Source of the DNA: Octopus vulgaris
Lineage: Eukaryota
Direction of reading: 5' to 3'
Assembly: GCA_951406725.2 (NCBI GenBank)
Contig: OX597833.1
Location: forward strand, 44,950,001 to 45,014,000
DNA: 64,000 bases
The notes under the pieces are model-generated. The model was not told the origin of the DNA. It did no database searches and saw only the letters and a list, made by a program, of their open reading frames with translations. Made by a program: the position numbers and the translations under genes. Of the stretch, positions 5,575-54,395 are shown in pieces. Numbering within the stretch: position 1 is the stretch's first letter; each line of letters opens with the position of its first letter.

Positions 5575-8296
5575 TAACCAAAATGGAAGCTAGGAGACAG
5601 GTATATATAGCCAAGGGAGTAACAGAAAAGAAGAAGTTTACCAATGTTCAGCGACGTGAGGACCAAAGAACTGAAGTATTTTGGATTGTAAGACAATGTG
5701 TGAGATAAAACTGTGATGTCATAGGAGAGAAATGTGTCTACATGGATGATGGTGCCCTTGCGTTTAATGATACTGCAAAGAAAGAGACTTGGAGGTGCCA
5801 TTATGAAAGACTGCTGAATGGGAAGAATGAATGGGAGGAAGAGAGTCTGCCAAAGGTTGACCCAGTTGAAGGACCAGCTACCCGAATTGACAGTACCCTG
5901 GTAGATAAAGCAATTAAGGATATGAAGACAGGGAAAGCATCTGGCCCATCAGGAATCACCGCCGAGATGCTTAAAATATCAGGCGGTGTTGATTATGGTT
6001 TTGTCACCCACATCATAAATCAGGTAGTTCATGAAGGAGTCATACCCAATGACAGGTGTAGCAGCAGCATAGTCAACTGCTACAAGGGTAAATGTAATGC
6101 TTTAGATAGAAATAACTACAGGGGTATCAAATTATTGGATCAGATGATGAAAGTTACAGAGAGAGTCATAGCCCAACTAATTAGGTAGAGAGTTAGCCTA
6201 GATGAGATGCAGTTTGGTTTTGTGACAAGCAGAAGCACCACTGATGCTATATTTCTGATAAGGCAACTACAAGAGAGATATCTAGCCAAAGATAAACCAC
6301 TGAACTTGGCTTTTGTTTTGACTTGGAGAAAGCCTTTGACAGCGTACCCCGATCCCTTATCTGGTGGTCAATGCGGAAACTGGGGATAGACGAGTGGTTG
6401 GTAAGAGCTGTACAAGCCCTGTAGAGGGATGCTGTCAGTAAGGTGAGGGTTGACAACGAGTATAGTGAAGAATTCCGAGTAGAAGTCCTCAGCCCCCTCT
6501 TATTCCTTATAGTCCTCCAACCAATAACAGAGGAATTCAAGACAGGCTGCCCCAGGGAGCTCCTCTATGCTGATGACCTTGCTCTAATAGCCAAGTCACT
6601 GCCAGAACTAGAGACGAAGTTTAGGGTGTAGAAGTAAGGTCTAGAATCAAAGGGCCTTAGGGTTAACCTAGCTAAAACCAAAGTCTTATGTAGGAAGGCT
6701 GTCAAATCAGAAACCCCTTCAGGTAGATGGCCCTGCTCGATTTGAAGAAATGACATGGGTAGAAACTCCATACGATGTACCCTGTGTAAATTATAGACAC
6801 ATAAGAGGTGCAGCAATATCAAAATAAGGTTAACCAAGCAAATTGTATGTGTGTGTAGCAGATGCACAGGGGCAATAAACACTGAAGATGTACAGAAAAT
6901 TGATTCCATCAAATGCCAGGGGAAGAAACTAGAAGTAGTTAATAGCTTCTGCTACCTAGGTGACCAAGTCTGTAGTGGGGGTGGTTGCTCTGAGAGTGTA
7001 CCAGCTAGACTAAGAATAGTCTAGGCAAAGTTCAAGGAGATCCTACCTCTGCTGGCAACTAAGGGCCTCTCGCTCAGGATGAAAGGTAAACTGTATGATG
7101 CATGTGTGTGAACTGTCAAGCTACATGGCAGTGAAACATGGGCCATGACTGCTGAAGACATGCGCAGTCTTGAAAGAAATGAAGTTAGTATGATCCACTG
7201 GATGTGTAATATCAGTGTGCATACACGACAGAGTGTAAGTGCCCTGAGAGAAAAGTTGGGCATAAGAAGCATCAAATGTGGTGTGCAAGAGAGATGACTG
7301 TGCTGGTATGGTCATGTGTTCCGTATGGATGAGGATAGCTGTGTGAGAAAGTGCCACTCCCTAACTGTGGAAGAAATCTGTGGAAGAGGTTGACCCAAGA
7401 AGACATAGGATGAAGCATGACCTTCAAACATTGGGCCTCACAGAGGCAATGACAGGAGATCGAAACCTTTGGAGATATGCTGTGATTGACAAAGCCTGGC
7501 AACTAAAGTGAGATTGCAGCCACACATGTCCAGCCCAGTTAAGAGTACCTCTCATGTGTTGGGTGATTATGATATGCTTGAGAAGACCTGCTGAGCCAAG
7601 TAAAACCAATATTGTAGCTGTGGCCAGTGGCCCCTAACTGGCTCCCATCCCGGTGGAATGTAAAAAGCACCAACTGAACATGGTCAATGCCAGGTCCACC
7701 TGACTGGCTCCCATGCCAGTGGTACGTAAAACGCACCATCCAAACATGACTGATGCTCCTGCCTCATGATGTCCATGACAGTGTCACATAAAAAGTTCTA
7801 TCCAAACATGATCAACGGCAGGACCACCTGACTGGCTCTTGTGCCAGTGGCACGTAAAAAGCACCATCCGAATGTGTGGCCAATGTCAGTACCGCCTGAC
7901 TGGCTCCCGTACCAGTGGCATGTAAAAAGCACCATTCGAACGTAGCCAATGCTAGTACCCACTGACTGGCTCTTGGGCCAGTAGCATGTAAAAATCACCA
8001 TCCGAATGTGGCTGATGTCAGTACTCCCTAACTGGCCTCCGTGCCAGTGGCACATAAAAAGCACTGTCTGAACTTGATCAATGCCAGGCCTGCCAGACTG
8101 GCTCCTGTGCAGGTTGCATGTAAAAAGCACCCACTACACTCATGGAGTGTTTGGTGTTAGGAAGGGCATCCAGCTCTAGAAACATTGCCAGATCAGAGTG
8201 GAGTCTGGTGCAGCCATCTGGCTTTCCAGACCTCAGTCAAACCGTCCAACCCATACCAGCATGGAAAACAGACATTAAACAATGAAGATGATGATG
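5575..8296 (+). mobile_element. 5'-truncated, decayed RTE-clade LINE
   Basis: Frameshifted RT motifs (NYRGIKLL, QFGF..RSTTDAIF, VLSPLLF, LLYADDLAL), tandem 3'-UTR subrepeats at ~7600-8130, (GAT)n tail. Confidence 0.93.
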
Positions 8297-19371: not shown

Positions 19372-19387
19372 ATGGGTGACGTTATTG
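19372..19387 (+). CDS. Putative first coding exon of the ankyrin-repeat gene (MGDVI-G)
   Basis: ATT ATG G Kozak context, in-frame TGA upstream (19354), GTAAGG donor at 19388; phase 1 matches the exon at 24909. No homology support. Confidence 0.45.
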
Positions 19388-24908: not shown

Positions 24909-25015
24909 GTCGGGATATTGATGGTAATACTTATACTCAGTATGATATTTTATATGAGCTTATTCAGGGTGATAGTAGATGGATTAAACAATGTTTTACA
25001 CAAAATCCACGTTTG
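24909..25015 (+). CDS. Ankyrin-repeat gene exon (G-RDIDGNTYTQYDILYELIQGDSRWIKQCFTQNPRL)
   Basis: Long polypyrimidine tract plus CAG, GTAAGC donor; phase 1 to 0, in frame with the exon at 26578. Confidence 0.75.
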
Positions 25016-35192: not shown

Positions 35193-35321
35193 CGCCGTCA
35201 TAATAATAATATAATGACACACACACACACACTATAGAATCCTGTAAAAATTTATATAATCTAATTTTGTACTATCTCATTGTCTGTGACTTATAATTTT
35301 TACAATTTCTGTAACTTTCAG

Positions 35322-35475
35322 CAACCATCTTGAGGTGATGAGCTTATTGCTGAACTATGGGGCTAATGTCAATATACAAAATGGAAAAGGTCATAGTCCA
35401 CTACATCTGGCCATTATTAAGAACTATATAAATCTGGTTAAGCCGTTACTTGAAGCTGCAAGAAACAGTGTTGAG
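35322..35475 (+). CDS. Ankyrin-repeat gene exon (G-NHLEVMSLLLNYGANVNIQNGKGHSPLHLAIIKNYINLVKPLLEAARNSVE)
   Basis: TTTCAG acceptor, GTGAGT donor; phase 2 to 0 completes GG+C; ankyrin consensus LLxxGANVN..GxSPLHLA. Confidence 0.93.
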
Positions 35476-37010
35476 GTGAGTCAATATATATTATCATCAT
35501 CATCCTCATATGTCTACTTTCTCTGCTGGCATGCATTGAATGGGTTGACTGACTGGAACAGCTCTGAGAAACTCATACCCCCTAACATAAAACACTTTAA
35601 TGAGCACATTGTTTCCAGGTACCATCACTGTAAAGGTTGCTGTACCCTTGACAAGGCAAGTGAACCTGCTTAACCCTGCATTCTCACTGCTTCATTTGAC
35701 AACTATACAGAACATAGGTCTGTTAAGAACCCTTGAATTTCTAAGGTCAGATCTTAACCCAGTTTCTTTGGCATATAGGTGTCTAACATCACAATACAGT
35801 TCATCCCTGTATGGGATGCTGGTCTGTTGCATGGTTAACTTAGCAACTATAGCTGGAGCTAAGTGGTGTAGAGCAGCATGAAATGAAGTGTTTTGCTCAA
35901 GAATGCAACATATGCATGGTTTGGAAATTGAAACCACAATCTTACAATTGTGTGTGTAACACACTCACCACTTGGCCATGAACCTTCTCTGTACAGAATG
36001 CACTCAATACTTTTGTGTGGCACTACCACAAGGGTGGTTATTTTGTAAGGGAGAGTTAAACAAAGGGAGAGTAATGACTTCATGTGGAATAGGGAGAGAA
36101 ATTGAAGTATGATGTGAGGAAGAGATTTGTCATTATGAGAGGATGGTAGCGGGTAGAGTAACAGAGGGGACGGTGCAAGTAGGTTGTATTGGAAAAAGCA
36201 GAGAAAAGGGAAGGGAAAAAGAGTTTAGTCTGGCATACGTACATACTTGTGCTCACCTTAAAATATGTATGTATCTAAATTTTGTACGACTCTTACTCTG
36301 TCTATTAGTCCCCCTTTTATTTTATTTTTTTTTACTTGCTCCTCCTCTTTCTCATATTTCTTGGCCCTCTCTTTCTTTAACTCCCACTATTTCCCACTCA
36401 TTTATCTCCCCTGTACCTTTCTCTTAGATTTTTTTTCTAATTCTTCAATCCCACTGCCTTCCAGTGTGATTGTTATCAGCATTGCCTTACTGGCACCTGT
36501 GACTGGTGTCCAGCCAGCCACAATCTTTCCTTTTTGGCCTGATTGCTGACCACCAACACCCCTTATGTCCATCTCCTATGTTCTTGCCTTTGGGCTTTCA
36601 CTTCATACACGCCAGCTCATACACGCCAGTATATTCAAGATTTTGTGGCGAATGTGAATGTGTTTATGGTTTATGTTTTGTGTATGTGTTTTTATTTGTA
36701 TAAACGTCTATATATATTTGCGAGGATGATTTTGACTACGCATTTATACGTATGTGTGTATATTTGTACATATGTATACATGTGTGGTTTTGTGTATCCG
36801 CATATGTATGTGCATGTGCATATAGAGATATGTACATGAACATAATGATGCGTGCATGGGCACATATAGGTGTGTATGTGTGTGCGTATGTGTATGTATA
36901 TAGGTGTACATATGCAGATTCTATGAACGAAGTTTTACTTTCACTATGCCTATTGGAGTAACTTCCCTTTATTCATCATTTTTTTTTTTCACATAGCGTT
37001 TTTGTCTTAA

Positions 37011-37059
37011 TAACTGATGATATGCCAGAGCATGCTTCAACCCCGGCATCCGAAACTCT
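37011..37059 (+). ncRNA. Hammerhead core, cut off from its cleavage strand by a SINE
   Basis: CTGATGA-T-ATGCC..GGCAT-CC-GAAAC-TCT; GGAGTA follows the SINE at 37481-86. Confidence 0.5.
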
Positions 37060-37063
37060 ATAT

Positions 37064-37265
37064 ATTCATTTACTCATTTATTCATTTACTTGTTTCAGTC
37101 ATTTGACTGTGGCCATGCTGGAGCACCGCTTTTAGTCGAGGAAATCAACCCCAGGACTTATTCTATCGGTTCTTTTGCCGAACTGCTAAGTTACGGAGAC
37201 GTAAACACACCAGCATCAGTTGTCAAGCGATGTTGGGTGGGGGAACAAACACAACACACAAACAT

Positions 37266-37314
<49 letters not shown>

Positions 37315-37479
37315 TACGACGGGCTTCTTTCAGTTTCCGCCTACCAAATCCACACACAAGGCTTTGGTCAGCCTGAGGCTATAGTAGAAGACATATGCCC
37401 AAGCTGCCACGCAGTGGGACTGAACCCGGAACCATGTGGTTGGTAAGCAAGCTACTTACCACACAGCCACTCCTACGCC
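37064..37479 (-). mobile_element. SINE family 1
   Basis: Full-length match to the family consensus. Confidence 0.92.
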
Positions 37480-37613
37480 TGGAGTATATATATATATGTG
37501 TATATCTCTAGCTATCTCTCTATCACTCTCTCTTTCCTTCTCTCTCTGTATATATATATATATATATATATATACACTCTATATATATATGTCTAATCTC
37601 TTTTTCTCCATGG

Positions 37614-37640
37614 GCATCCAGAGAAGAAGCTAAAATCCAG
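37614..37640 (+). pseudogene. Dead micro-exon A (27 nt, ASREEAKIQ)
   Basis: Flanks homologous to the exon at 43946-43969, but the acceptor is CATGG (not CATAG) and the donor GAAGGG (not GTAAGGG). Confidence 0.7.
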
Positions 37641-37734
37641 GAAGGGTACTAATCCTCCACCTGCATGATTAATTCTTATAACTGCATTGTGTTGGCTGAG
37701 AAAAAATATTTTAAACATTTGCATCATCATCTTT

Positions 37735-40000
37735 TGTTACTGGTAGGGGTTGAACGGTTTGATTGTGGACTGGTAAGCCAGGAGGCTGCAACTGGCTCTA
37801 ATTTCATTTAGCATGGTTTCTACAGCTGGATGCCCTTCCTAATGCCAACCACTCCAAGAGTTAATGGGTCCTTTTTACGTACCACCATTATGGGAATCAG
37901 TTAGGTGGCACTGGCATCGAACACGCTCAAATAGTGGTTCTTATGTGCAGCTGGCACAGGTGCCATTCAGGTGGTACTGGTATCGACCACGTTTGAATTT
38001 TCGTTTTTACTACCACCATGGGTGCCAGTCTGGCAGCACTGACATTGGCCACAACTATGATTTCACTTGGTTCAACAAGTCTTCACAACCATGGCATATT
38101 GTCTGATGAATGAAGGGTACTTTTAAATGGGTCAGTTTTGTGACATTGGAATCAGCCACGGCTTTGATCTCACTTTGCTTGCCAGGTTTTCTCAAGCACA
38201 GCATATCTCCAAAGGTCTTAGTCACTTGTCATTACCTCAGTGAGGCCCAACATTCGATGGTCATGCTTCACCAGCTCATCCCATGTCTTGCTCTGTCTAC
38301 ATCTTCCACAGGTTAGGGTGTGACATGTCACAAAGCTATCCTCATTCATATGCAGCACATGACTATACCAGTGTAGCCATCTCTCTTGCACACTACGTTT
38401 GATGCTTCTTAAGTCCAACTTTTCTCTCAGGGTGCTTGCACTTGGTTGTGTATGCACACTCACATTACACATCCAGTGGAGCATAGTAGCTTCATTTCTT
38501 TCAAGCCTATGCATGTCTGCAGTAGTCTCAGCTCATGTTTGACTGCTATGTAGCATGGCTGTTTGTGCACAGGCATTATACAATATAAATTCCACTCTGA
38601 GGAAGAGGCCCTTTGTTACCAGCAGATGTAGGAACTCACTGAACTTTGGTCAGGCTATTCTTATTCTAGCAGCTACACTCTCAGAGTATCCATCTCTGCT
38701 TCTGACTTGGTCACCTAGGTAATGGAAGCTATCAACTACTTCTAGTTTTTCTCCTGGCATATGAAGGGAGTTTTCTGTACATCTTCGGTGTTTATTGCAC
38801 CTGTACATCTGTCACACACAAAAACTATCTTCCCATTTAACCTTCCTTTGATATTGCTGCGGCTTACATGTGTCCATAGCTTATACCAGGTATATCTTAT
38901 GGCGTTTCTACCTATACCTTTTCTACAGCAGGGCCATCTACCTGAAGGGATTTGTGATTTGTTTGCCTTCCTACTTACTAAGACATTGGTTTTTGCTAGA
39001 TCCTTTTGATTCTAGACCTTGCTTCCACACTTGAAACGTCTTCATTAGTTCTCGTAGTGACTCAGAGTTTAGAGCAAGATAATCAGCATAGAGGCAGGGC
39101 AGCCTGTCTTGAATTCCTCTATTATTGCCTGGAGGACTATGATGAATAAGATGGGGTTTAGGACTGATCCTTGGTGAACCCCTACTTGTACCCAGAATTC
39201 TTTACTATACTCATTGACAACTTTCACCTTACTGACAGTATCCCTGTGCTTGAATTGTACAGCTCTTACCAATCAATCGCCTATCCCTAGTTTCCACAGT
39301 GACCACCAGATAAGAGATTGGAGGACCCTGTCAAAGGCTTTCTCCATTTCAACAAAAGCCATGTACAGAGGTTTATCTTTGGCTCAGAATTTCTCCTGCA
39401 ACTATCTTACCAGAAATATAGCATCAGTGCTGCTTCTCCCTGGCACAAACCCAAACTGCATTCATCTAAACTAACTCTCTCCTTAATTAGTTGGGCTGTG
39501 ACCCTCTCAATGAATTTCATCATCTGATAACTCTGTGATTATTTCTATCTAATGTGTCATCTTTACCTTTGTAACAGTTGACTAGGTTGCTGCTATAGCA
39601 GTCATTGGTGTGACTCCTTTGTGTATCACCTGGTTGACTATATTGATGACTAGACTGTAGCCTATGCCACCAGATATTGTAAGCATCTCAGGAGTGATTC
39701 CTGATGGGCTGAGGGGTTTCCCCATTTTCGTACCCTTAATTGCTTTATTTACCAACATACTGTGAATACGAATAGCTGTTCCTTATGTTGGGTCAACATT
39801 TCGCAGACTCTGTTTCTCCCACTCATTCTCTTCATTTCATAGTGGCATCTCCCAGTCTCTTTTTTGCAGCATCATTGAATGCAAGTGAGCCATCGTCCAT
39901 GTGGACACATTTCTCTCCAATGACATCACAATTTTCTCTCACACACTGTCTTACAATTTGAAACACAAGTTTCCAGTCCTCACAACACAGAAGATTGGAA
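37735..40000 (-). mobile_element. Decayed RTE LINE in the ankyrin gene intron
   Basis: Collinear with 5640-8200 in reverse; VGVHQGSVLNPILFIIVLQAIIEEFKTGCP. Confidence 0.92.
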
Positions 40001-40412
40001 AATTCTGTGGTGGGGGTGGGTTTGGGCGGGCGCACAGCGAACAGGTCGGTCGGAATTAAGGGACGATGGTCAGAATTATATCTATGATTATACAAGTCTG
40101 TACTTCTAAATCAAATAAGTGCTGATTGTTTGCTTATATGTGATTCCGTGATTCGGAACTATTTTTATGCTAATTTCAAGTATGTCTTTAGTTTTCACCT
40201 ATCACAGGCAGATTTTCCATAAATGGCTGCTAAAGATATGATGATTTTTCTTGTCATTCATTGCCTTCTGTGGCAGACCTTTAGGTAAAAGTATGATGAA
40301 TTTAAGAACAATAATAAAAAAGATGTGGATAATGTATGTAGGCTACGCAGTTAAGTGAGCTTACAAGAACAAGTCATAGTATTCAATTATTATTATTGTA
40401 TTGTTGTATTTT

Positions 40413-40894
40413 GGGATGGTCATCTTTTTTTCATTTTCATGCCAAATAGACACATGCACTATATATTTGTTCTTCACTTGTTTATTACTCTTGCTATTTT
40501 AACCAACATCCAACGTCCAGAAACCTTTCATCATACATCTGTAACTAACCTCTTCAGCAACACTTTCCATATTTGTGTGTGCTCTTGTTCTGCTTATTCC
40601 ATTCTGTTCTTCTATGATGTGACCCATCATATGTGACCCACGATAGAAGAACAGAATGGAATAAGCAGAGCAAGAGCACACACGAATACGGAAAGTGTCA
40701 CTGAAGAGGTCTTAGAATGGAATAAGCAGAGCACACACAAATACAGTAAGTGCTGCTGAAGAGGTCACAGATGTGTGACAAAAGGTTTCTGGACGATGGA
40801 CATGAGTTAGAGTAAGAACAGTAATAAATGGGTGAAGAACGAATATATAGTGCACGTATCTATTTGGCAAAAAACAAAAAAGTATGACCATCCC
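40413..40894. repeat. ~480 bp imperfect foldback within the intron unit
   Basis: GGGATGGTCAT..ATGACCATCCC termini, centre ~40630; other copies at 49660-50040, half copies at 44145-44355 and 47570-47725. Confidence 0.9.
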
Positions 40895-41201
40895 CATATA
40901 CAGCAATATCTTTCAACACACGGTTTCCCAAAAGGAATCTTGCAACACAAATTCATAAATGTAGAAATTATTATTCTAATTAATTATTAATGCCATATTA
41001 ATACACACGTATATTTTCATCAACATATTTCTTTTTAAACATTATACAAAGAGAAAAGATACTGGCTGATATACATGTGACCTATACATATGAATGCACA
41101 AACACACACATGTGTGTACATGTCTTTATGTATGAGTATATATTTAGCTATATATACACTATATATACATATATGTATATATCACTTCCTTTTCTCCATA
41201 G

Positions 41202-41246
41202 GTATGCATAAGAAACACTGATGACACTCAGGCAGGAATATTCCAG
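41202..41246 (+). CDS. Micro-exon B of the ankyrin gene (45 nt, VCIRNTDDTQAGIFQ)
   Basis: CTTCCTTTTCTCCATAG acceptor, CAG|GTAAGT donor, phase 0-0, no stop. Confidence 0.72.
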
Positions 41247-42319
41247 GTAAGTAGCCATTGACCTGTGTTATTAATATTTATTAATTGCATTGTTTTCACT
41301 TAGAAAAAATATTTAAAACATTTACAGACACACATACAAACACAGTTATTTATAAACATCTGTGATTACACAAGTCTGACATTTTAAATGAAATAAATTA
41401 TGATTGTCTACTTATAGGTGATTCTGAAACATTTTTCATACTGATTTCAATAATGGTTTTAATTTTTGCCTATCACATACAGATTTTTCATAAATGTTTG
41501 CTAAAGATATGATTTTACTGGTCATTTGTTGTTTTGTAGCAGACTTCTAGGTAAAAGTATGATGAAATTAAGAACAAAAGACGAGATCAATAATAAGAAA
41601 TGAAGTTCTAATATCATTCGACCACGGTACTAGCTGAATATATTCTCAAGTCCACCATTTCATCAATCAGAGCAGCTTCCAAGCTTCACCACTATTTCAG
41701 TTCCCAACTAAATTGCAAACTGTTAATAGTTTTAAAGAGGACACCTCCTCAGCTATAGTTTGGCATAAATAGTTTGAGCCTTGGTTCAGTAGAAAAAAGT
41801 TAAAATATAAATATCTCCGACTTCAAGGAGTGGGCAGTAGGTAGATATACATCTTCAGTTAACATAAATTTTTCAATTTTAAATTAAAAGTATACTTTTC
41901 TTAGTCTTAAATGATAGAAAAATGCACAAGGAATTAAGAATCGCTAGTTGCATTGAACGAAAATTAATAGAAAAAGAGTTATGAAGTAAAATGTTAAGAA
42001 ATTTCCAGTCCATAAGTAAGGAAGTAAGGCTTCAGGAATAAGAATAAAGAATATATTTCTAAAATGAATGTTTACCATCTTTTGATACAAACACAACCCA
42101 GGCTATGCTTTCAGAGTTTTTGGATAAAGTTTTCAGAAATAAACCATTAAGTCGTCTATTGATTTTGTGAAATGTTCACAGCACCTGTTAGTTATAATTA
42201 TTACAATAATTAATTCTCAACATATACATTTTACACAGCATGTTTGTATAAACACTGTGCAGTGAGACTGACTAACTAGCTTGTACACATGTGGCCTATA
42301 CATACATACATACATACAT

Positions 42320-42374
<55 letters not shown>

Positions 42375-42435
42375 TACATATACATATCTTCATGCTTGTA
42401 TGTATATATATGTATATCTCAACCTAACTCTATAT

Positions 42436-42588
42436 ATTACACGGAAAAATATGAGGAATAGAAATGGTATTCTTAAGCTTATAAACCTGGAAAATTACAG
42501 GATCTATTATTACATTTGGAAAAGTTCAGGACTAGTTATTACATTTGGTAAAGTACAGAACAAGAAGATTTTGCTTAAAATATTGCAG
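42436..42588 (+). other. Exon-like segment C (153 nt open, phase 0-0) with damaged acceptor
   Basis: CAG|GTAAGG donor; upstream flank homologous to units B/E but the acceptor reads CTCTATAT; an internal in-frame CAG would give a 30-nt exon (42559-42588). Confidence 0.4.
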
Positions 42589-43945
42589 GTAAGGATCATC
42601 ATCATCATCATCGTTTAATGTCCGTTTTCCATGCCAGCATGGGTTAGAAGTTCAAATGACAAATTTAGATTTAGAAAATATTAGCATTCATTAAAACTAA
42701 AAGTTTTATTACACGTTATTACATTTATTTGTTATTGCTTGTTACTTCCTTTAAAAATAAAGAATAATTCAATTAAAATATTTTTTTTAATTATTAATTA
42801 ATAATTAGAAAGTTGAAAATAGTTTATAAAAAATAATTCTAGTACATAATTAGTTAGTACAATAATAATATATTAATTAAAATTAATTAACAAAATAATT
42901 CTATAACGAATATTTTCAAGATAAAAAAACGTTTTATAAATTGCAGAAGAAATTGTGCTATGACCTTTATATTAACAAGCCTAGTAGGAAGAGAGAGAGA
43001 GATGAAAAGTGAAAATTAGAGCAAAAGGCAACTGATTAAAATACAAACGTACATTGTCAATGAAATTATGAATGTGAAAGATTTATGAGTGTGTAAATTT
43101 TATTTTTTAATTGATATACAAAAGCAATAAAAAGAATGTTTAATTTAATGAGATGAAAACTATGAAATTCCTCACTGTGTCATAGAATTATATTATCACC
43201 CTGAAATTTGAGAAACAAACACTCATAACTATTTTCTTTTAGAACTTAATTGCATGAGATTGATACCATGAAATTCCTCGAATTGAGCTCTGTCATTTAA
43301 GCTTTACCCATTCATACTGATTGTCCATTTCAACTGGCACTTAATTTAAAGGGTGTGAAACAAATACTTGATACAAATTGTGATTTCTGTATGATCTGTA
43401 TCACAGTATGGAAGATGTTATTAATGTGTATGCAGTCGGTGTCAAACACATTTCAATGAAATTTTTTTTCAATTGTTATTTAGGTCAAAATAATAGTATC
43501 TGTGAATTTTCAGGCAATTTCATTCTCTAGAAAAATTTCAGCATTTTTGGGTTGATTAAAATATAGCTTGTTTTTAAAACAAAAAAGTTATTTATGCTTA
43601 AATCCAATTTTATGCCTTACTTATATTAATTTTCATATTTTACCTCCCAACTTTTTTAGCATTGAAGCTAAGATGAATATATTTTTTTCTTTATTTAGAT
43701 CTAAACTTGACTGGTGGTGTTACTTAGTCTCCTATAATGTCACTCCAAATTTTATTGTAAACATTGTTCTACTGGACCAATTTTTTTCTACTGGTTTTCC
43801 ATTTAGTTAAGAACTGAATTAGCGACAAGCTCTGAAAGGTGCTGCGTGTGAGTAAATTGCGTCCTTAAGAATATTATTCAGCTACTGCTGTAGTTGAATG
43901 ATACACTATATATACTATATATGTCTCATCTCTTTTTCTCCATAG

Positions 43946-43969
43946 TTATTTGAAAGCAGTCCAATACAG
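43946..43969 (+). CDS. Micro-exon D of the ankyrin gene (24 nt, LFESSPIQ)
   Basis: CTCTTTTTCTCCATAG acceptor, CAG|GTAAGG donor, phase 0-0. Confidence 0.7.
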
Positions 43970-44630
43970 GTAAGGGAACTAATCATCAACCTGTATTATT
44001 GATATTTATAACTGCATTGCTTTGGCTTAGAAAACCTATTTAAAACATTAACATCATCATCAGCATTGTTTAATGTCCACTTTCCTTGCTGGCATGGGTT
44101 GAACAACATGCTCTTTGCAGCATCATTAAATGTTTTTTTTTTATGATGTGACACATCATAGAAGAACAGAATGGAATAAGCAGAGGAAGAGCACACACGA
44201 ATACGGAAAGTGTCACTGAAGAGGTCACAGATGTGTGACATAAGGTTTCTGGTTGATGGACATGAGTTAGAGTAAGAACAGTAATAAATGGGTGAAGAAC
44301 AAATATAGAGTGCACGTATCTATTTGGCAAAAAAACAAAAAAATATGACCATCCCCATCTGCAGCAACTCATGGTATAACACGGGGAATCTTGCAACACA
44401 AATTCATGAAAATAGAATTATTATTCTAATTAATTATTAATACCATGTATATACACATGTATATTTTAATCAGCATATTTATGAAAACGTTATAGAATGA
44501 GAAAGGATACTGGCTGATATACATGTGGCCTATACATATGTATGCACAAACACACACACAGATACACACAAACATGTGTGCATGTTTCTATGTATGTGTA
44601 TATATTTATCTATATATATATATGGATATA

Positions 44631-44669
<39 letters not shown>

Positions 44670-44703
44670 TATGTATATATGTTTCACCTCCTTTTCTCTA
44701 TAG

Positions 44704-44751
44704 GCATATTCAAGAAACTTGCATCACTCTCTGTTCCCAGATTTCTTATAT
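44704..44751 (+). other. Micro-exon E (48 nt, AYSRNLHHSLFPDFLY), ancestral donor lost, in-frame cryptic GT
   Basis: CTCCTTTTCTCTATAG acceptor; paralog of exon B; the position homologous to GTAA reads ATAT, next GT (GTAACC) at 44752. Confidence 0.4.
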
Positions 44752-45249
44752 GTAACCATCAACCTGTGTTATTAAAATTTATAAATTGCATTGTTTGTGC
44801 TTAGAAAAATATTTTAAATGTTTACACACACTCTCTCACACACACACGCACATACACACAGAGTTATTTATATACATCTATTATTTACACAATGTTGATG
44901 AAATAAATTTTAAATGAAATAAATTATGATTGTCTACTTATAGGTGATTCTGAACAATTTTTAATCCTGATTTCAAATATGCTTTTAGTCTTTGCCTATC
45001 ACATGCAGATTTTGCATAAATGGCTGCTAAAGATATGATTTTTCTGGTCATTCGTTGCTTTTTGTGGCAGACTTGTAGGTAAAAGTATAATGAAATTAAG
45101 AACAAAAGACTAGAGCAATAATAAAAAATGATGTGAATAATGTATGTGGGCCATTTATTTGAATGGGCTTGCAAGAAGTTCTAATATTTAATTATTATTC
45201 TCTTATAATAATTCTACTTGTTTCTCCCTTATTTAGCCCGTCCATAATG

Positions 45250-46790
45250 TTTCCATATGTTATTATTGTCAATGAGTCTCTGTCACCTGACATCTACCAA
45301 TAGATTAAAATTGTTCAAAAAATCCGCACACAGAATAGGACATGGGAGATCAGCTATGACAAAAAATCCACCTAAAATCCCAGCGAAGATTGATGTCAAT
45401 ATGTAAGGAAACTTGACCGTAAGTCACAATGAGAGACTAATTGACTGCGTGCAAGGTGTTGGTGATCTCTGAATGCTTTGGCTTGTCTGTAGTGAGACAC
45501 AAAGGCCAAATAGAGCAACTAGAACCTGTGTCAACTATGAATGCCTTGTTAGACATGTGGTCCTTTACAAAAAATGCACAATTTGAGGATAATTGGCTGG
45601 AAGTGCTTGGTGTGCTCAAGCCCTCCACAGGTCGTTTCCTGACAACTGGGAAGAACAAGGCTGAATGCATTTACGGGTGTTATACTGATACCTGGAATGG
45701 TACCAACTAAGACCAGAACTAGATGAAAAGGAATCGGTTGAGCGTGAACGGGACCGGCTTCGACTGCGACAGTGCGAAGAGTTGAAGTGCTCTCCCCAAA
45801 GTGCATCCATCTGGCATGTTAAAGAAGCAAGTTTCTCCAAAATATCATCATGTGATGAGGAAGATGCAGTGGAGGAAATCTCTGAACAAGAGCAGACATG
45901 GTGAGTTGCTGGCTGGACAGAGAACTTATGAGTTTTATCAGCCATGGTAGCTAGTTGATCCACAGTGTTGGTATCAACCACTGTGGCTAAAATGGTTTGC
46001 ACATTGGGAGGTAGCCGGGAGAAGAAAAGCTTCCGTAAGAGCAAGTTGTCCTCAGTCGTGTCACTGAGCTTGTGTAGATGCCGTAAAAATTAAGATGGTG
46101 TCCTGTCTCCTAGCTCCTTGTCCCGCATTAGCTGCTTAAACTTAGACTCCGTGGATTTAGTGTTCTGTCAGAGAACCTTGGATTTGACTACTTCGTAAGT
46201 CGCATCCGGATGAGGATCGGTGATGAGATCCCTGACTAAATTAGCAAATGGTGCAAGAATGCCATAAAAGAGAAGATTTAATTGCCGCTGTGAAGGTCTG
46301 CATGTGCTGCAAAATATGCCTCCAACTGTGCGAAGCAAAGCGTGATGTCACCAGTGAAAGAAGGAAAATTAGGTAAACTTTTTTTTCCTGTCAGAGGAGA
46401 AAAAGAAAAGACCAAAAAACCAACAAAAGTGTTGCTGGAAATGTGTGTGTGAGAAAAAAGTTTTTCCTGAGCAAAATTTATAGAATCATGTACTGTATGC
46501 ACAGACAAAAAAAAATTTCATCACCAAACCTCTTGTTTTGCTGAAAGAAAACAAAAAAAAAAATGCCAAAAAAACTGATTGTATGTGTGCGCTTGTACCA
46601 ATAAATTTTTTTTTTTGTAAGTTGAAAAAGTCACGCGTGGTAAGTAGCTTGCTAACCAACCTCATGGTTCCGGGTTCAGTCCCACTGCGTGGCATCTTGG
46701 GCAAGTGTCTTCTACTATAGCCCCGGGCCGACCAATGCCTTGTGAGTGGATTTGGTAGACGGAAACTGAAAGAAGCCTGTCGTATATATG

Positions 46791-46821
<31 letters not shown>

Positions 46822-47393
46822 GTTGTGTGTCTGTGTTTGTCCCCCTATCATTGCCTGACAACCGATGCTGGTGTGTTTACATCCCCGTCACTTAGCGGTT
46901 CGGCAAAAGAGACCGATAGAATAAGTACTGGGCTTACAACGAATAAGTCCCGGGGTCGATTTGCTCGACTAAAGGCGGTGCTCCAGCATGGCCGCAGTCG
47001 AATGACTGAAACAAGTAAAAGAGAGAGAGTAAGTCTCAAGTAGAAATGCAAATTCACAACACCAGTTTTATTTACATGTGTGTCGCTCTCAGCATACCAT
47101 CTCAAGCTGTGTCCATCTCATTGTATCTCCATTGATGCAGATCCATTACATCTGGAGATATGACTAGCCTGGAGACCCAGCCAGCAAATATGTGCGTGTT
47201 CAGCAGGCACTTGCGATGAAGAAGAGACAGAATCTGTTTGTTGGGCCCTTATATCCAGTTTGCCATCACAAGCCTCGTTGTGATCTCGCGCATGGCGAAT
47301 GGATGCAAGTGAGATCTCACTCCAGTCTTGGAGATAGCAAAGGCTACCAGCGAGATCTCATTCAATATGGCACTGATTGCTTGTGCAGCTACA
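45250..47393 (-). mobile_element. Truncated Gypsy-like LTR retrotransposon (5' LTR ~47040-47393, decayed gag and protease)
   Basis: LTR TGTAGC..AATAAA..TTTCTAC; gag motifs FAQLEAYF, ELGDRTPS, FFSRLPPNVQTIL, WYH..Y...RKC..PC; protease FIVDTGSSCSI. The host unit resumes at 47394. Confidence 0.85.
46635..47031 (+). mobile_element. SINE family 1 nested in the Gypsy leader
   Basis: Family consensus, slightly 5'-truncated. Confidence 0.92.
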
Positions 47394-47759
47394 GATATGA
47401 TGATTTTTCTTGTCATTCATTGCCTTCTGTGGCAGACTTTTAGGTAAAAGTATGATGAATTTAAGAACAATAATAAGAGATATGGATAATGTATGTAGGC
47501 TACACGGTTAAGTGAGCTTACAAGAACAAGTCATAATATTTAATTATCATTATTATATTGTTGCATTTTGGGATGGTCATTATTTTCATTTTTTGGCCAA
47601 ATAGACACATGCACTGTATATTTGTTCCTCATCTGTTTATTGCTCTTCTTATTCTAACTTGCATCCAATTTTTCGTTACAAATCTGTGACCTCTTCAGCA
47701 ACACTTCCTGTATTTGTATGTGCTCTTTTAGTTTTTTATTTCCTGTTTTTCAGCTACTA

Positions 47760-48204
47760 TTTTCGGAAAGACTTTTTTGCCCCCACCATCCTCCCCCTCC
47801 TACTTCTTCATTTTCCATTTTTTCCGTAACTCTAACCCTAAAATCCCAACCCTAACCATAATCCTAAAACCTTAACCCTAACCCGAAAACCTTAAAGCTA
47901 AAACTAGTACAAAAGCACGAACGATGCCATAAATAACAGTGACAAATGAAATATACACCATCGATAGTTGTGGTTGACAAACAATGGCAGTAATGTTATT
48001 CAGCTGAATACAAGTCACTGATTGGTTGAAATTACCAAAATACAGCAACTTTAACACAAAATAACTTTGAAAATAGAAACTATTCTCAACAACACGAAGA
48101 ATAAAAGATGTTTTATATGACACATTCTACCAGTGTCTGAAGTTTGAAAGTGTTTAGTTACAAAAAATAAATTTCTCAATCTGCCTCTCAAAGGGAAAAG
48201 ATCC
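47760..48204 (-). mobile_element. GGATC-family MITE fragment with (CCCTAA)-like internal repeats
   Basis: Ends AAAGGGAAAAGATCC; uninterrupted relative of 22020-22705. Confidence 0.82.
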
Positions 48205-48209
48205 TAAAA

Positions 48210-48636
48210 TTTTCAGAAATAAGCCATGCAGTCAAGTATTAATTCTTTAAAATGGAAGATAAGAAAGTTCATTTTCAGCACTTGATGCTTTGGGAACCAG
48301 ACAAAAATTGCTGCAGCTCAGCTGGGATGTTTTACCCCACCCTCTATATTTACCATATATTGCTCCTTTGTATTTCCACTTATTCAGGTCTCTGCAGAAT
48401 AGTCTTAATGGTAAAAATTTCAATTCTTTGGATGATGTAAAAAGATACCTTGATGAATTCTTTGCCATAAAACCATCTCAATTCTGGGAAGAGGGTATTT
48501 TCAAGTTAAAGGAAAGATGGAGATGCATTGTGCAACGAAATGGTTCATATTTGGTTGATATAAAAATGTAATGGCAAGTATTTATTGACCTTTTTGTTTC
48601 TTTTAATAATCGGCATGAACTTTCCGGACAACCCAA
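48210..48636 (+). mobile_element. Internally deleted mariner
   Basis: MEDKKVHF fused to WDVLPHPLY..IAP..FHLFRSLQN..KLKERW; right TIR ..CCGGACAACCCAA-TA. Confidence 0.87.
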
Positions 48637-48679
48637 TATATGTATACACACACACACACACATATATATACATACATAC

Positions 48680-48872
48680 GTGCGGGTGGCACGTAAAAAG
48701 CACCCACTACACTCACGGAGTGGTTGGCGTTAGGAAGGGCATCCAGCCGTAGAAACACTGCCAGATCTGACTGGGCCTGACGAAGCCTTCCAGCTTCACA
48801 GACCCCAGTTGAACCGTCCAACCCATGCTAGCATGGAAAGCGGATGCTAAATGATGATGATGATGATGATGA
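48680..48872 (+). mobile_element. Young RTE 3' end fragment
   Basis: Same sequence as 33590-33785, (GAT)n tail. Confidence 0.9.
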
Positions 48873-49156
48873 TACACACACACAATTATATATATCTATG
48901 ATTACACAACCCTGCAATTTTAAATGAAATAAATGCTGATTATTTACTTATAGGTGATTTGGTGATTCGGAACTATTTTCTTATGTTCATTTCAAATACG
49001 TTTTTTGTTTTCACCTATCACGGGCAAATTTTCCATAAATGGCTGCTAAAGATATGATGATTTTTCTTGCCATTCATTGCCTTTTGTGACAGACATTTAG
49101 ATAAATGTATGATGAATTTAATAACAATAATAAGAAAGATATGGATAATGTGGATA

Positions 49157-49576
49157 GGCGCAGGAGTGGCTCTGTGGTAAGTAGCTTGCTTACCAACCAC
49201 ATGGTTCCTGGTTCAGTCCCTCTGCGTGGCATCTTGGGCAAGTGTCTTCTGCTATAGCCCCGGGCTGACCAATGCCTTGTGAGTGGATTTGGTAGACGGA
49301 AACTGAAAGAAACCTGTCGTATATATGTATATATATATGTATGTGTGTGTGTTTGTGTGTCTGTGTTTGTTCCCCTAGCATTGCTAGTGTGTTCCCCTAG
49401 CATTGCTGGTGTGTTTACGTCCCTGTCACTTAGCGGTTCGGCAAAAAGAGACCGATAGAATAAGTACTGGGGTTACAAAAAGAATAAGTCCCGGGGTCGA
49501 GTTGCTCGACTAAAGGCGGTGCTCCAGCATGGCCGCAGTCAAATGACTGAAACAAGTAAAAGAGAGAGTAAAGAGT
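49157..49576 (+). mobile_element. SINE family 1
   Basis: Full length; splits the intron unit at GATAATGT..TA. Confidence 0.93.
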
Positions 49577-51718
49577 AATGTATGTAAGCCACAGTTAAAC
49601 GAGCTTACAAGAAGAAATCATAATATTTAATTATTATTATTATTATTATATTGTATTTTGGGAGGTCATTATTTTCATTTTTTGGCCATATAGACACATG
49701 CTCTATATATTTATTCTTCACTTGTTGATTACTCTTCTTATTGTAATTCACATCCATTGTCTGGAAACCTTTTGTCACACATCTGTGGCCTCTTCAACAC
49801 TTTCTGCATTCGTGTTTGCTCTTCTTCCGCTTATTCCATTCTGTTCTTCTATGACGTGACACATCATAGAAGAATAGAATGGAATAAGCGGAGTAAGAGC
49901 ACACACAAATACAGTAAGTGTTGCTGAAGAGGTCACAGATGTGTGACAAAAGTTTTCTGGACGATGGACATGAGTTAGAGTAAGAACAGTAATAAATGAG
50001 TGAAGAATGAATATACAGTGTATGTATTTCTTTGGCAAATAAAAGCAACTATCTTGGGATGGGGAGAGGATGGATGGCATTGGGAGGGGAGGTAGAGGTG
50101 GTGGTGAGTGAAATATGTAATATTTTATTTTTGAACGTAGTTCTTTCTCTCTGTTTCTTTGCCTGTCTGAGATGCTTTCATGTGATTAGTTGATGGGAAA
50201 GGCAAAGCATGAAAGAAAATGGAGTGCGAAAAAGAGGTAAGACAAAGAGTGATAGAAAAAGAGGGCAAGTGCTGTGTATCTTGTCTATGAAGTTGTGCAT
50301 AAAGTATATAGAAGTGTATGTATAAAGTGCATTTAGTAATCATCGTTTTCCAATTTCCTTCACTTTTCAATGATTAGCAAACGAGCGACTGTCTTTTGAT
50401 ACAGACAAAACACAGGCTATGCTTTCAGATGTTTTGGATAAAGTTTTCAGATATAAGCTGTTAAGTCGACTATTAATTATGTGAAATATTCACGGGATCT
50501 ACGAGTTATTATTATTACTATAATTAATTATTTATCTCCTAATATAATAATGAGCGTATTGTCTTTATATTTTTGTATTTACATATATTTCTACAGAATC
50601 ACGCCAGATGCAGAGGAAGAGTTAAAATAGTATTTCACTGAAGGAGAAGTAGTAAGAGTAATAGCCCTGACTGAGGGGGATTGAGAGAAAGTAATAGCAA
50701 TGAGAGAAAGGAAGGGGTAATAGATAAATAAGGAAGTAAGGCATAAAAAAATAAAAATCAACGTTTTTATCTCCTTGTGAGTATATGTGTGTGTACAAGG
50801 GAAGTATGCGAATTTTTGTATATGTGATTACTATGTATCTTATTTTATACCTTATGAAACATCATCATCATCATCGTTTAACATCCGTTTTCCATGCTGG
50901 CACGGGTTGGATGGTTTGACTGAGGACTGGTGAGCCAGAAGGCTGTACCAGGCTCAGTCTGATCTGACAAAGTTTCTACAGCTGGATGCCCTTCCTAACA
51001 CCAACCACTCTGAATTTATGAAACTGCTACAGCCTAGAGATAAATTACTAAACACATACGATGAATGAGGAATCAAATGTGGACACAAAAGTAATTTTAC
51101 CTTTAATAAAATGAAATACTGAACTCCACCCCCTAGAATCTAATAACCACAAACTTTTGATTTCTACAGTACTTGAACAGATTATATAAATAATTAAATA
51201 AATCAATTAATTAAATATTACTAAAAATTCTAACAAATTATATAATCATACCTCCACATAGTTAGATTGGAGATAATAATAGAAGATAATTTAAATTAAT
51301 CTATGCATAGTGGCATTACTCCCCTTAGTACTAATCACACATAAATTCCTGTATTGCTCTGCTATCTTGACTTCCTTTAATAGCCATTTTGAAAGGCATC
51401 TTGGATCCATCAAAGAAGGATATGTATTTTATCTTACTTTTAACATTTAATCACATTTTTATTCTGATGTATATTTTATATCTTATATTTTGTATTTGAC
51501 ATTATATACTTGACTTTATAATTTAGATATATGTATACTAATTCATATATAAAATGTATAATTTATAATTTTTAATTCTTAACTTTATAAAGTATAATTT
51601 TTAATTTTTAATGTTTAATTTAACGCTTAATTTTGAGATTAACAATATCTTGAAAAAGAATTTGTAGATGTGTTGGTAGGATTGTAAATCTGATTATATA
51701 TATGTGTGTGTGTGTATG

Positions 51719-53399: not shown

Positions 53400-54395
53400 T
53401 AGAAAAAAACCACCTTTTATCAATTCAATAAAGAAAAAATTAAAATTATACCATTTAGAAAAATTAGATCTTATAGAAAGATTAAATATAAGATAAAACA
53501 TATACCAATGATTAAGTAATGTGCAGAATAATAAATAAAACGTATATATTTGATAGAATAACTACACATGTTTCGTGGCTATATTTTAGAAATGATTATA
53601 ATAAAATCACTTCAATATAAATATAGTCACTCTTCAGGTTAAAGATAAAAACAATAAAATAATTAAAAGTTAAAAGAATATCATTACTTTCTTATGATTT
53701 AGAGTTTTTTAATAAGCATACACCTTATTATGATAAAGCCCTGCATGAGGCAGGATATAATAATAATATTAAATTCTTTAATATTTATAAACATAATTAT
53801 AATTTGAAGGAGTATAATATAAATGATTTTTATAATGATAAACCTAATTATCTGAATTATGATAAGTTTTATTTAGGTATCTATCGTCTAAATCATAATA
53901 GATATTTTGATGATGTAAATCATGCATTTAATATTGGAATAAAAAAAAAAAAATAAAAAGATAAAATTTAATTCAATTAATGAAGATAATAAATTTAATA
54001 ATATAAAAGATAAGAATAAAATATGGTTAACTTTTCCTTTTGGGGCTCAGGTTAAAACATTTTTTATTTAACAATATTATTTAACTTTTGAATTGTATTA
54101 TGTTTGATTATTATTATTATTTTTGTTAAAGTATTAATTTATATATAATTTCTTGATAATTATTAGTTATGATATGTATACTTATTTATTTATTATGTTT
54201 ATTATTATTTTTATAATGTGATTTAACATATTACATATAATTTAATTTGAGTAAGAGTTTTATAAGATAATATATTATTTAATAGTTAGGGGGTCTATTT
54301 ATTATGTAGTATTACATTTGACTAAAAAAGTTTAATATTAATTGATATTTTGGTCAACTATATAATTGAGTAAAATATTAAATCTATATTAAATC
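53395..54395. mobile_element. AT-rich Penelope-like element remnant with inverted terminal segment
   Basis: Plus-strand peptide traces HTPYYDKALHEAGY and KIWLTFPFGAQVKT resemble PLE RT C-termini (from memory); a hammerhead lies on the opposite strand at the left end. Confidence 0.55.
53559..53641 (-). ncRNA. Minimal type-I hammerhead ribozyme with intact core
   Basis: Minus: TAAC-CTGAAGA-GTGACTATAT..ATATAGCCAC-GAAAC-ATGT-GTA-GTTA; stem I TAAC/GTTA, palindromic ACATGT at stem III. Confidence 0.72.

Follow-up and report, generated by a model that had tools for sequence, protein, structure and literature searches.

The ankyrin gene and its array of short exons

We examined a window of 64,000 nucleotides of the 2.8-Gb Octopus vulgaris genome (C20:44950001-45014000, where C20 is contig OX597833.1), in which an ankyrin gene, hereafter gene 1, carries an array of short-exon cassettes that are very probably duplicated copies of a dispersed repeat and whose exons have diverged far more than the introns around them. 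A sequence-only reading of the window had described five exon slots, A to E, and had placed them at the 3' end of the gene, where they would diversify the tail of its protein. The protein CAI9737748.1 (P0001), labelled Octopus vulgaris, is identical to the ankyrin exons of the window, and its alignment to the genome (tblastn) yielded the following exons:

19372..19387, + strand: coding exon 1, with the start codon, of the MIB-like ankyrin gene (gene 1); tblastn of P0001, donor read from the sequence
24909..25015, + strand: constitutive coding exon 2; tblastn of P0001
26578..26735, + strand: constitutive ankyrin exon 3; tblastn of P0001
35322..35475, + strand: constitutive ankyrin exon 4, ending in phase 0; tblastn, and contigs in all four presumed-RNA runs, stopping at 35473

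The next exon after B in gene 1 proved by tblastn to be a large ankyrin exon at C20:45019692, 5.7 kb past the window end, and an inverted paralogue, gene 2, continues to two RING fingers; the array thus lies mid-gene, between ankyrin repeats of a MIB-like ankyrin-RING gene, and not at its tail. Position 50597 had been considered as a possible terminal exon and was dropped once the true next exon had been located. An assembly gap (C20:45020464-45020563) directly follows the last gene 1 exon seen, and no RING exons of gene 1 were found by tblastn on the + strand of the 244 kb examined. In Octopus sinensis, a separate 216-residue C-terminal MIB2-like model (P0015) hints that the RING half of gene 1 may be hidden in the gap. 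The large ankyrin exon itself (C20:45019692-45020030 in gene 1; C20:45063634-45063000 in gene 2) differs in repeat number among gene 1, gene 2 and the O. sinensis model, with length steps of 66 and 99 residues in the alignment, and its first 8 residues are fast-changing.

The slots of the array and the sites connected with them are as follows:

37614..37640, + strand: slot A, a dead D-type cassette of 27 nt with acceptor and donor broken; sequence and alignment
41190..41330, + strand: cassette B as a whole (acceptor, slot, donor and downstream flank of ~80 nt), by alignment a single arm of a MITE-like foldback repeat with dispersed copies
41202..41246, + strand: exon B, live, 45 nt, symmetric, AG/GT intact, open, spliced to exon 4; contigs and alignment
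42436..42588, + strand: slot C, a dispersed repeat and not an array exon; genome search and rate
43699..43716, + strand: cryptic acceptor that belongs to a dispersed repeat lying upstream of D, reading Ile and then a stop, 18 letters seen; one contig from B
43946..43969, + strand: slot D, an intact, open, symmetric micro-exon of 24 nt that differs from its gene 2 counterparts at 12-14 of 24 bases; sequence and alignment
44704..44747, + strand: slot E, a B-type cassette of 44 nt, acceptor intact, homologous donor mutated; alignment

The homologous flanks reported for A, B, D and E were recovered at 74% mean column identity over the four copies, as were the 27-nt slot A with both of its sites broken and the intact, open slots B (45 nt) and D (24 nt); of the five slots, only B and D are live in the window. 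Slot C lacks an acceptor, and all 40 of the candidates that were scored (out of 1186) match it, 37 of them outside this locus at 81-89%; it differs from its gene 2 copy at 11/153 positions, which is the rate of the flanks (190/3112). Slot E had been counted as a 48-nt exon, a length that rests on a weak downstream GT, and with its homologous donor mutated it is probably dead. The earlier statement that every slot length is a multiple of three holds for the six intact cassettes of the two genes (45, 24, 45, 42, 24 and 24 nt, all of them open) and fails for the 44 nt of E, where it had been fitted post hoc.

Gene 2 lies nearby in inverted orientation (C20 ~45118000-45043400). This paralogue is complete and encodes both the ankyrin repeats and the two RING fingers, its introns differ from those of gene 1 at 160/6454 positions, and its own array comprises six cassettes: B0, whose exon is identical to B, B' (42 nt), D1 and D2 (24 nt each), and the dead x1 and x2. 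Live and dead copies in both genes bear out the birth and death of duplicated, symmetric short-exon cassettes that had been suggested. Across the whole genome, the pattern of cassette acceptor, 15-45 nt and donor has six matches, all of them in gene 1 or gene 2, against none in the reversed control. No cassettes were present in the five other paralogue regions examined, out of at least 152 matches to the family, and in the paralogues inspected on C8 and C29 the corresponding junction consists of a plain phase-0 intron separating two repeats, and the hairpin comes directly after it.

Splicing of the cassettes

Splicing was assessed from contigs at depth 4-11 in four runs whose RNA status was guessed. 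Contigs on B were obtained in three of the four runs, representing three studies; they cover 41200-41246/49 only, with exon-4 letters in front and none in the flanks, in agreement with the predicted splicing of B after exon 4, and run X10 gave no contig on B. Exon B is also contained in annotated models of two species. Contigs over 35200-50850 were swamped by high-copy repeats and are uninformative on A, D and E.

What follows B differs among contigs and models, as had been expected of variable exon combinations. The predicted junction from B to D (41246>43946) was not seen; a contig of run X1 joins B instead to the cryptic acceptor at 43699 and meets a stop immediately after one Ile codon. 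In runs X3 and X13, from two studies, B is followed by an exon encoding EFRGYDGQVM, which is found in the O. sinensis protein XP_036366777.1. This EFRGYD-type exon had no match by tblastn or mismatch scan in the 244 kb, nor genome-wide at up to two mismatches, in an assembly whose incompleteness means that absence cannot be proved. A second X13 contig continues after B with GTA and four loose letters, which fits B' and is too short for proof. The annotated models, taken as given, contain B alone (P0001), B and B' (P0137), B, B' and a D2-type exon (P0002), or B and two EFRGYD-type units (P0014), and it is precisely after B that the O. sinensis models X1 and X2 diverge. One to three cassette exons are thus held together in a model, not exactly one per transcript.

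These contigs also bear on the possibility that the array is an artefact, consisting of intronic transposon copies with chance splice-like motifs in two genes that are an assembly duplication. The cassette unit is repeat-derived and the assembly gap adjoins gene 1, as such an artefact would have it, but the exact exon-B boundaries of spliced contigs from three studies largely refute it. The two genes moreover are inverted, carry independent insertions and differ by 35.5 non-synonymous changes in 221 codons, and an O. sinensis protein is identical to gene 2, and unlike gene 1, along a stretch of 104 residues. We hold this explanation to be very improbable.

As a separate observation, contigs of runs X2, X3 and X5 on window positions 35321-35473 are just 3-4 letters off gene 1, the X3 contig with a gene 2-like end; they may represent an allele or recombinant of genes 1 and 2, or a third copy.

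Origin from a dispersed foldback repeat

Judged by homology, the exon and both of its splice sites are a case of transposon-type exonisation. The downstream flank of the cassettes matches other chromosomes, where it forms the end of a long inverted arm, and the arms of this element align with the cassettes across acceptor, slot, donor and flank. The repeat has long inverted arms and at least 62 matches (40 of 113 candidates scored); the term MITE-like is descriptive. Our comparison set was picked from flank and arm matches and comprised 38 arms from all 29 fetched loci, with the short hairpin L008 excluded. The majority slot in these arms is 45 nt long, the length of exon B, and has a stop at codon 3 that B has lost. 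Exon B agrees with the element slot at 23/45 positions without gaps (chance p=4e-4); for its flank the agreement is 45/54, no different from that of the arms in general.

The sequence-only reading had allowed that the unit might be a dispersed transposable element carrying splice-like motifs everywhere, and this is half right. The unit is a repeat with proto-splice sites, AG being kept in 17/37 arms, GT in 21/37 and both in 12/37; open, symmetric and intact cassettes, however, occur only in the two genes, and none of the 12 arms with both sites is symmetric and open. Within the dispersed arms, conservation of the slot (0.86) is on a par with that of the flank (0.83), with an arm-to-slot match of 0.86 on average and 0.58 at minimum.

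In Octopus bimaculoides, an older model (P0018) has an insert at the same junction (residues ~197-207) that contains FPEE, as does the foldback slot in another frame. Other models of that species include letters in the same intron that match an interspersed repeat, which suggests that this intron may have been exonised from repeats there too.

The predicted loop and the protein family

According to Pfam, gene 2 and its O. sinensis counterpart encode ankyrin repeats followed by RING fingers, and neither P0002 (722 residues) nor P0001 has a match to Mib-herc2, ZZ or REP. Among solved structures the C-terminal part is most similar to MIB1 RING3 (E 3e-9), and source labels say MIB2-like; a fold search returned generic ankyrin solenoids only, with MIB1 ANK at rank 17. 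A search for whole-protein homologues gave three close octopus proteins and no others. The RING domains point to a putative E3 ubiquitin ligase, predicted to be cytosolic; by eye, the N-termini show no hydrophobic leader, and the domains are ankyrin and RING.

The cassettes contribute 15-39 of the 273-724 residues in the protein models, as an internal insert of a predicted cytosolic ligase, and the schistosome micro-exon gene (MEG) label attached by the sequence-only reading does not suit such a protein. AlphaFold2 was used to model P0002 from 7 sequences (mean pLDDT 66); residues 150-198, which make up the insert, came out as a low-confidence segment between helix 137-150 and helix 200-207, that is, from the second helix of one repeat to the first helix of the next, where the other repeats have 14 residues. 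The prediction is that the 15-39 residues lack structure and are inserted at an inter-repeat hairpin of the ankyrin domain. Ankyrin loop regions accept additions and serve recognition (PMC9611651).

The C-terminal ankyrin and RING part has at least 152 matches in the genome (150 of 448 candidates scored), with an ankyrin number that varies in the family; by this sequence count, octopus has a large expansion of MIB-like ankyrin-RING genes. No paper on the octopus MIB2-type ankyrin family or on this locus was found in an open-access search by title and opening of the abstract, and supplements of genome papers could mention the family. The matches lie on C29, C31, C30, C27, C26, C8 and C1 (102.7 Mb and 216.9 Mb); they concentrate on small chromosomes and form tandem runs. 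Introns of two paralogues (C29:28482624-28484633 and C29:29220606-29224880) contain near-identical tandem arrays of ~100 bp with embedded microsatellites, which adjoin duplicated ankyrin exon pairs and are rich in simple repeats and not exon-like by eye.

Divergence of slots and flanks

The impression that the exons have diverged more than their flanks became much stronger once the paralogue was included. When gene 1 is aligned with the first gene 2 unit (3331 columns), B differs from B' at 16/42 positions and D from D1 at 12/24, against 190/3112 in the remainder, and D and D2 differ at 14/24 positions in the slot and 12/347 in the flank. The maximum in 378 non-overlapping intronic blocks of 24 columns, taken from seven stretches elsewhere in the gene pair, was 8 differences. 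Dead and live cassettes that arose in the same duplication behave differently: the dead pair x1/x2 has 1/29 changes in the slot and 3/109 in the flank, whereas the live pair D1/D2 has 3/24 and 1/110, and all three of its slot changes are non-synonymous. A comparison of gene 2 with the O. sinensis X2 model shows changes at 5/37 micro-exon residues, as against 14/563 elsewhere (p=0.004), a background from which 48 residues at the N-terminus and the 8 that open the next exon were excluded; with those 8 residues, 3 of which have changed, added to the loop, the figure is 8/45 (p=7e-5).

We interpret the array as an exonised foldback arm that was duplicated into cassettes and now encodes a variable, alternatively spliced ankyrin loop, predicted to lie at the surface and likely under diversifying selection, and give this reading as a whole a probability of about 0.6. 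One foldback arm, inserted in the phase-0 intron that separates a pair of ankyrin exons, would have supplied acceptor, slot and donor; stop loss and tandem duplication by unequal exchange would have come next, followed by in-frame shortening (from 45 to 42, 27 and 24 nt), gene duplication and the death of some copies. Exon B would be the near-constant first piece and the later cassettes the variable part. Selection would drive the change of the slots, and short conversion events from one cassette copy to another would probably assist it; such micro-conversion is the likely source of multi-base jumps. The predicted loop would alter the substrate choice of the E3 ligase.

A number of results count against this interpretation. 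No spliced form of slot D was observed for gene 1, the sole gene 1 contig read past B enters the stop exon, and the runs behind these observations are only guessed to be RNA, with low contig depth (4-11) and X10 blank. Gene 1, the RING exons of which are absent from the assembly beyond the gap, may be decaying. Exon B is unchanged between gene 1 and gene 2 (0/45), the cassette pairs are not independent of one another, and the fold model is modest, given its mean pLDDT of 66 and 7 sequences. Three intronic places inside the array reach 10-12/24 differences, one of them a microsatellite misalignment and two of them real clusters (10-11/24), and block replacement therefore occurs in introns too. 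For D against D1 and D2, synonymous and non-synonymous change are about equal (pS 0.44-0.58, pN 0.51-0.59, on ~4.5 synonymous sites), and the classic point-mutation signal of selection is not demonstrated for these slots.

The equality of pS and pN and the two intronic clusters favour an alternative in which the exons are real and near-neutral, the loop between repeats being tolerant and the excess divergence being due to gene conversion among old, diverged cassettes with homogenised flanks. The stop-carrying splice form, the several dead copies, the predicted lack of structure and the other repeat-derived letters in this intron of O. bimaculoides models point the same way. Against such neutrality, the replaced block in D ends at the first base of the exon, with length, frame and splice sites kept, and dead x1/x2 and slot C change at the flank rate. 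Nor was a donor sequence found, either for the core of D genome-wide at up to one mismatch or for D, D1 and D2 locally above shuffles. The constitutive exons of the two genes have a pN of 0.068 (pS 0.052) against an intron divergence of 2.5%, and the fast-changing residues extend into the next exon. We consider near-neutral evolution unlikely, though it deserves to be taken seriously.

A local mutator acting on the slot independently of selection, by hairpin-related or by transcription- or splicing-linked hypermutation, as has been proposed for the 'segment switch' of venom genes, would account for the very high multi-hit codon change, third positions included. It would also agree with an expressed EFRGYD-type exon that is missing from the assembly at up to two mismatches, which implies a turnover of slot sequences inside populations or among very close ones. 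On the other side, dispersed arms of the same element have no excess slot divergence, dead slots are not accelerated and B is static between the two genes, and we judge a mutator improbable.

Returning to the reading of a selected loop, our preferred candidate driver is a host-pathogen contest, an immune role being a guess from the family expansion and the rate of change. In its furthest form, the transposon arm would have become a pathogen-driven loop on an ankyrin scaffold, comparable to antibody CDR3, with a cassette repertoire that varies by gene copy and individual; recognition of a substrate, for example a viral protein, would then be varied somatically by splicing and population-wide by cassette birth and death. 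We put this forward as a speculative and rather doubtful extension.

Comparison with known systems

The usual size cut-offs for micro-exons lie below B (45 nt) and B' (42 nt). In exonisation of the Alu type, a repeat arm gives both splice sites and inclusion is alternative, with some stop forms, and usually single exons under weak or purifying selection result; the octopus case differs in adding tandem amplification and strong acceleration. Dscam-type arrays contribute exactly one exon per transcript, unlike the octopus models with their one to three cassette exons. LoopDARPins are engineered proteins that bind targets with a long variable loop at the ankyrin inter-repeat turn; the octopus loop shares this placement and is natural, though predicted only. 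Like MIB1 and MIB2, the octopus proteins have ankyrin repeats and then RING fingers, but they lack matches to Mib-herc2, ZZ and REP, and the family has a variable ankyrin number and a large octopus expansion.

Short symmetric exons, variable inclusion, transposon-rich surroundings and, judged in octopus by slot-over-flank rate, fast evolution are shared with the schistosome MEGs of PMC4350168, where the coding regions are described as mostly micro-exons and the products as secreted with a signal peptide, and where the duplication of a MEG-3 exon, one case, is tied to a transposon insertion. The octopus gene differs from MEGs in having few such exons, which together make up a single insert inside a large ankyrin-RING protein, and in that exon and splice sites are repeat-derived. 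In the ROCO LRR and NB-ARC TPR exon arrays of Ectocarpus (PMC3341825), duplicated exons, live and inactivated, likewise occupy one region and differ between recent gene duplicates; positive selection was reported there and ligand variability proposed. Each Ectocarpus exon is a whole structural repeat with a conserved framework, whereas the octopus exons encode a framework-free inter-repeat loop of non-coding repeat origin. The accelerated exon evolution of snake venoms ('ASSET') resembles the octopus case in that short segments are swapped for near-unrelated sequence while introns remain highly similar, by a mechanism that PMC2711939 leaves unresolved. There the segments lie mostly within exons of secreted toxins, unlike the octopus segment, which is a whole alternative exon of a predicted cytosolic ligase with its ancestral slot available.

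This locus is a rare case in which a hypervariable exon array can be followed through its whole history, the non-coding ancestor being still multi-copy in the genome, with live and dead copies of equal age as internal controls and close octopus species as time points. An old question, that of wholesale replacement of short exons between similar introns, by selection, micro-conversion or a mutator, thereby becomes testable. The strongly expanded and apparently unstudied MIB-like ankyrin-RING family offers candidate variable recognition proteins in octopus, and expressed exons exist that the reference assembly lacks.

Other features of the window

Further repeats lie in and around the array:

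37740..40006, strand not assigned: interspersed-repeat insertion splitting the downstream flank of A, which we take to be LINE-like; second copy at 5632-8259
40400..40909, strand not assigned: palindromic repeat within the duplicated unit, with more pieces at 44136-44367, 47555-47727 and 49652-50051
48872..50529, + strand: what is left of another copy of the duplicated unit, comprising downstream flank and palindromic repeat and lacking an exon slot

A very AT-rich stretch at 53400-54380, checked as a possible mitochondrial insert, has no recognisable frame under table 5. Inserted in the downstream flank of E, positions 45200-46600 contain open frames of 157 and 79 codons on the - strand, which presumably resemble a retrotransposon gag fragment.

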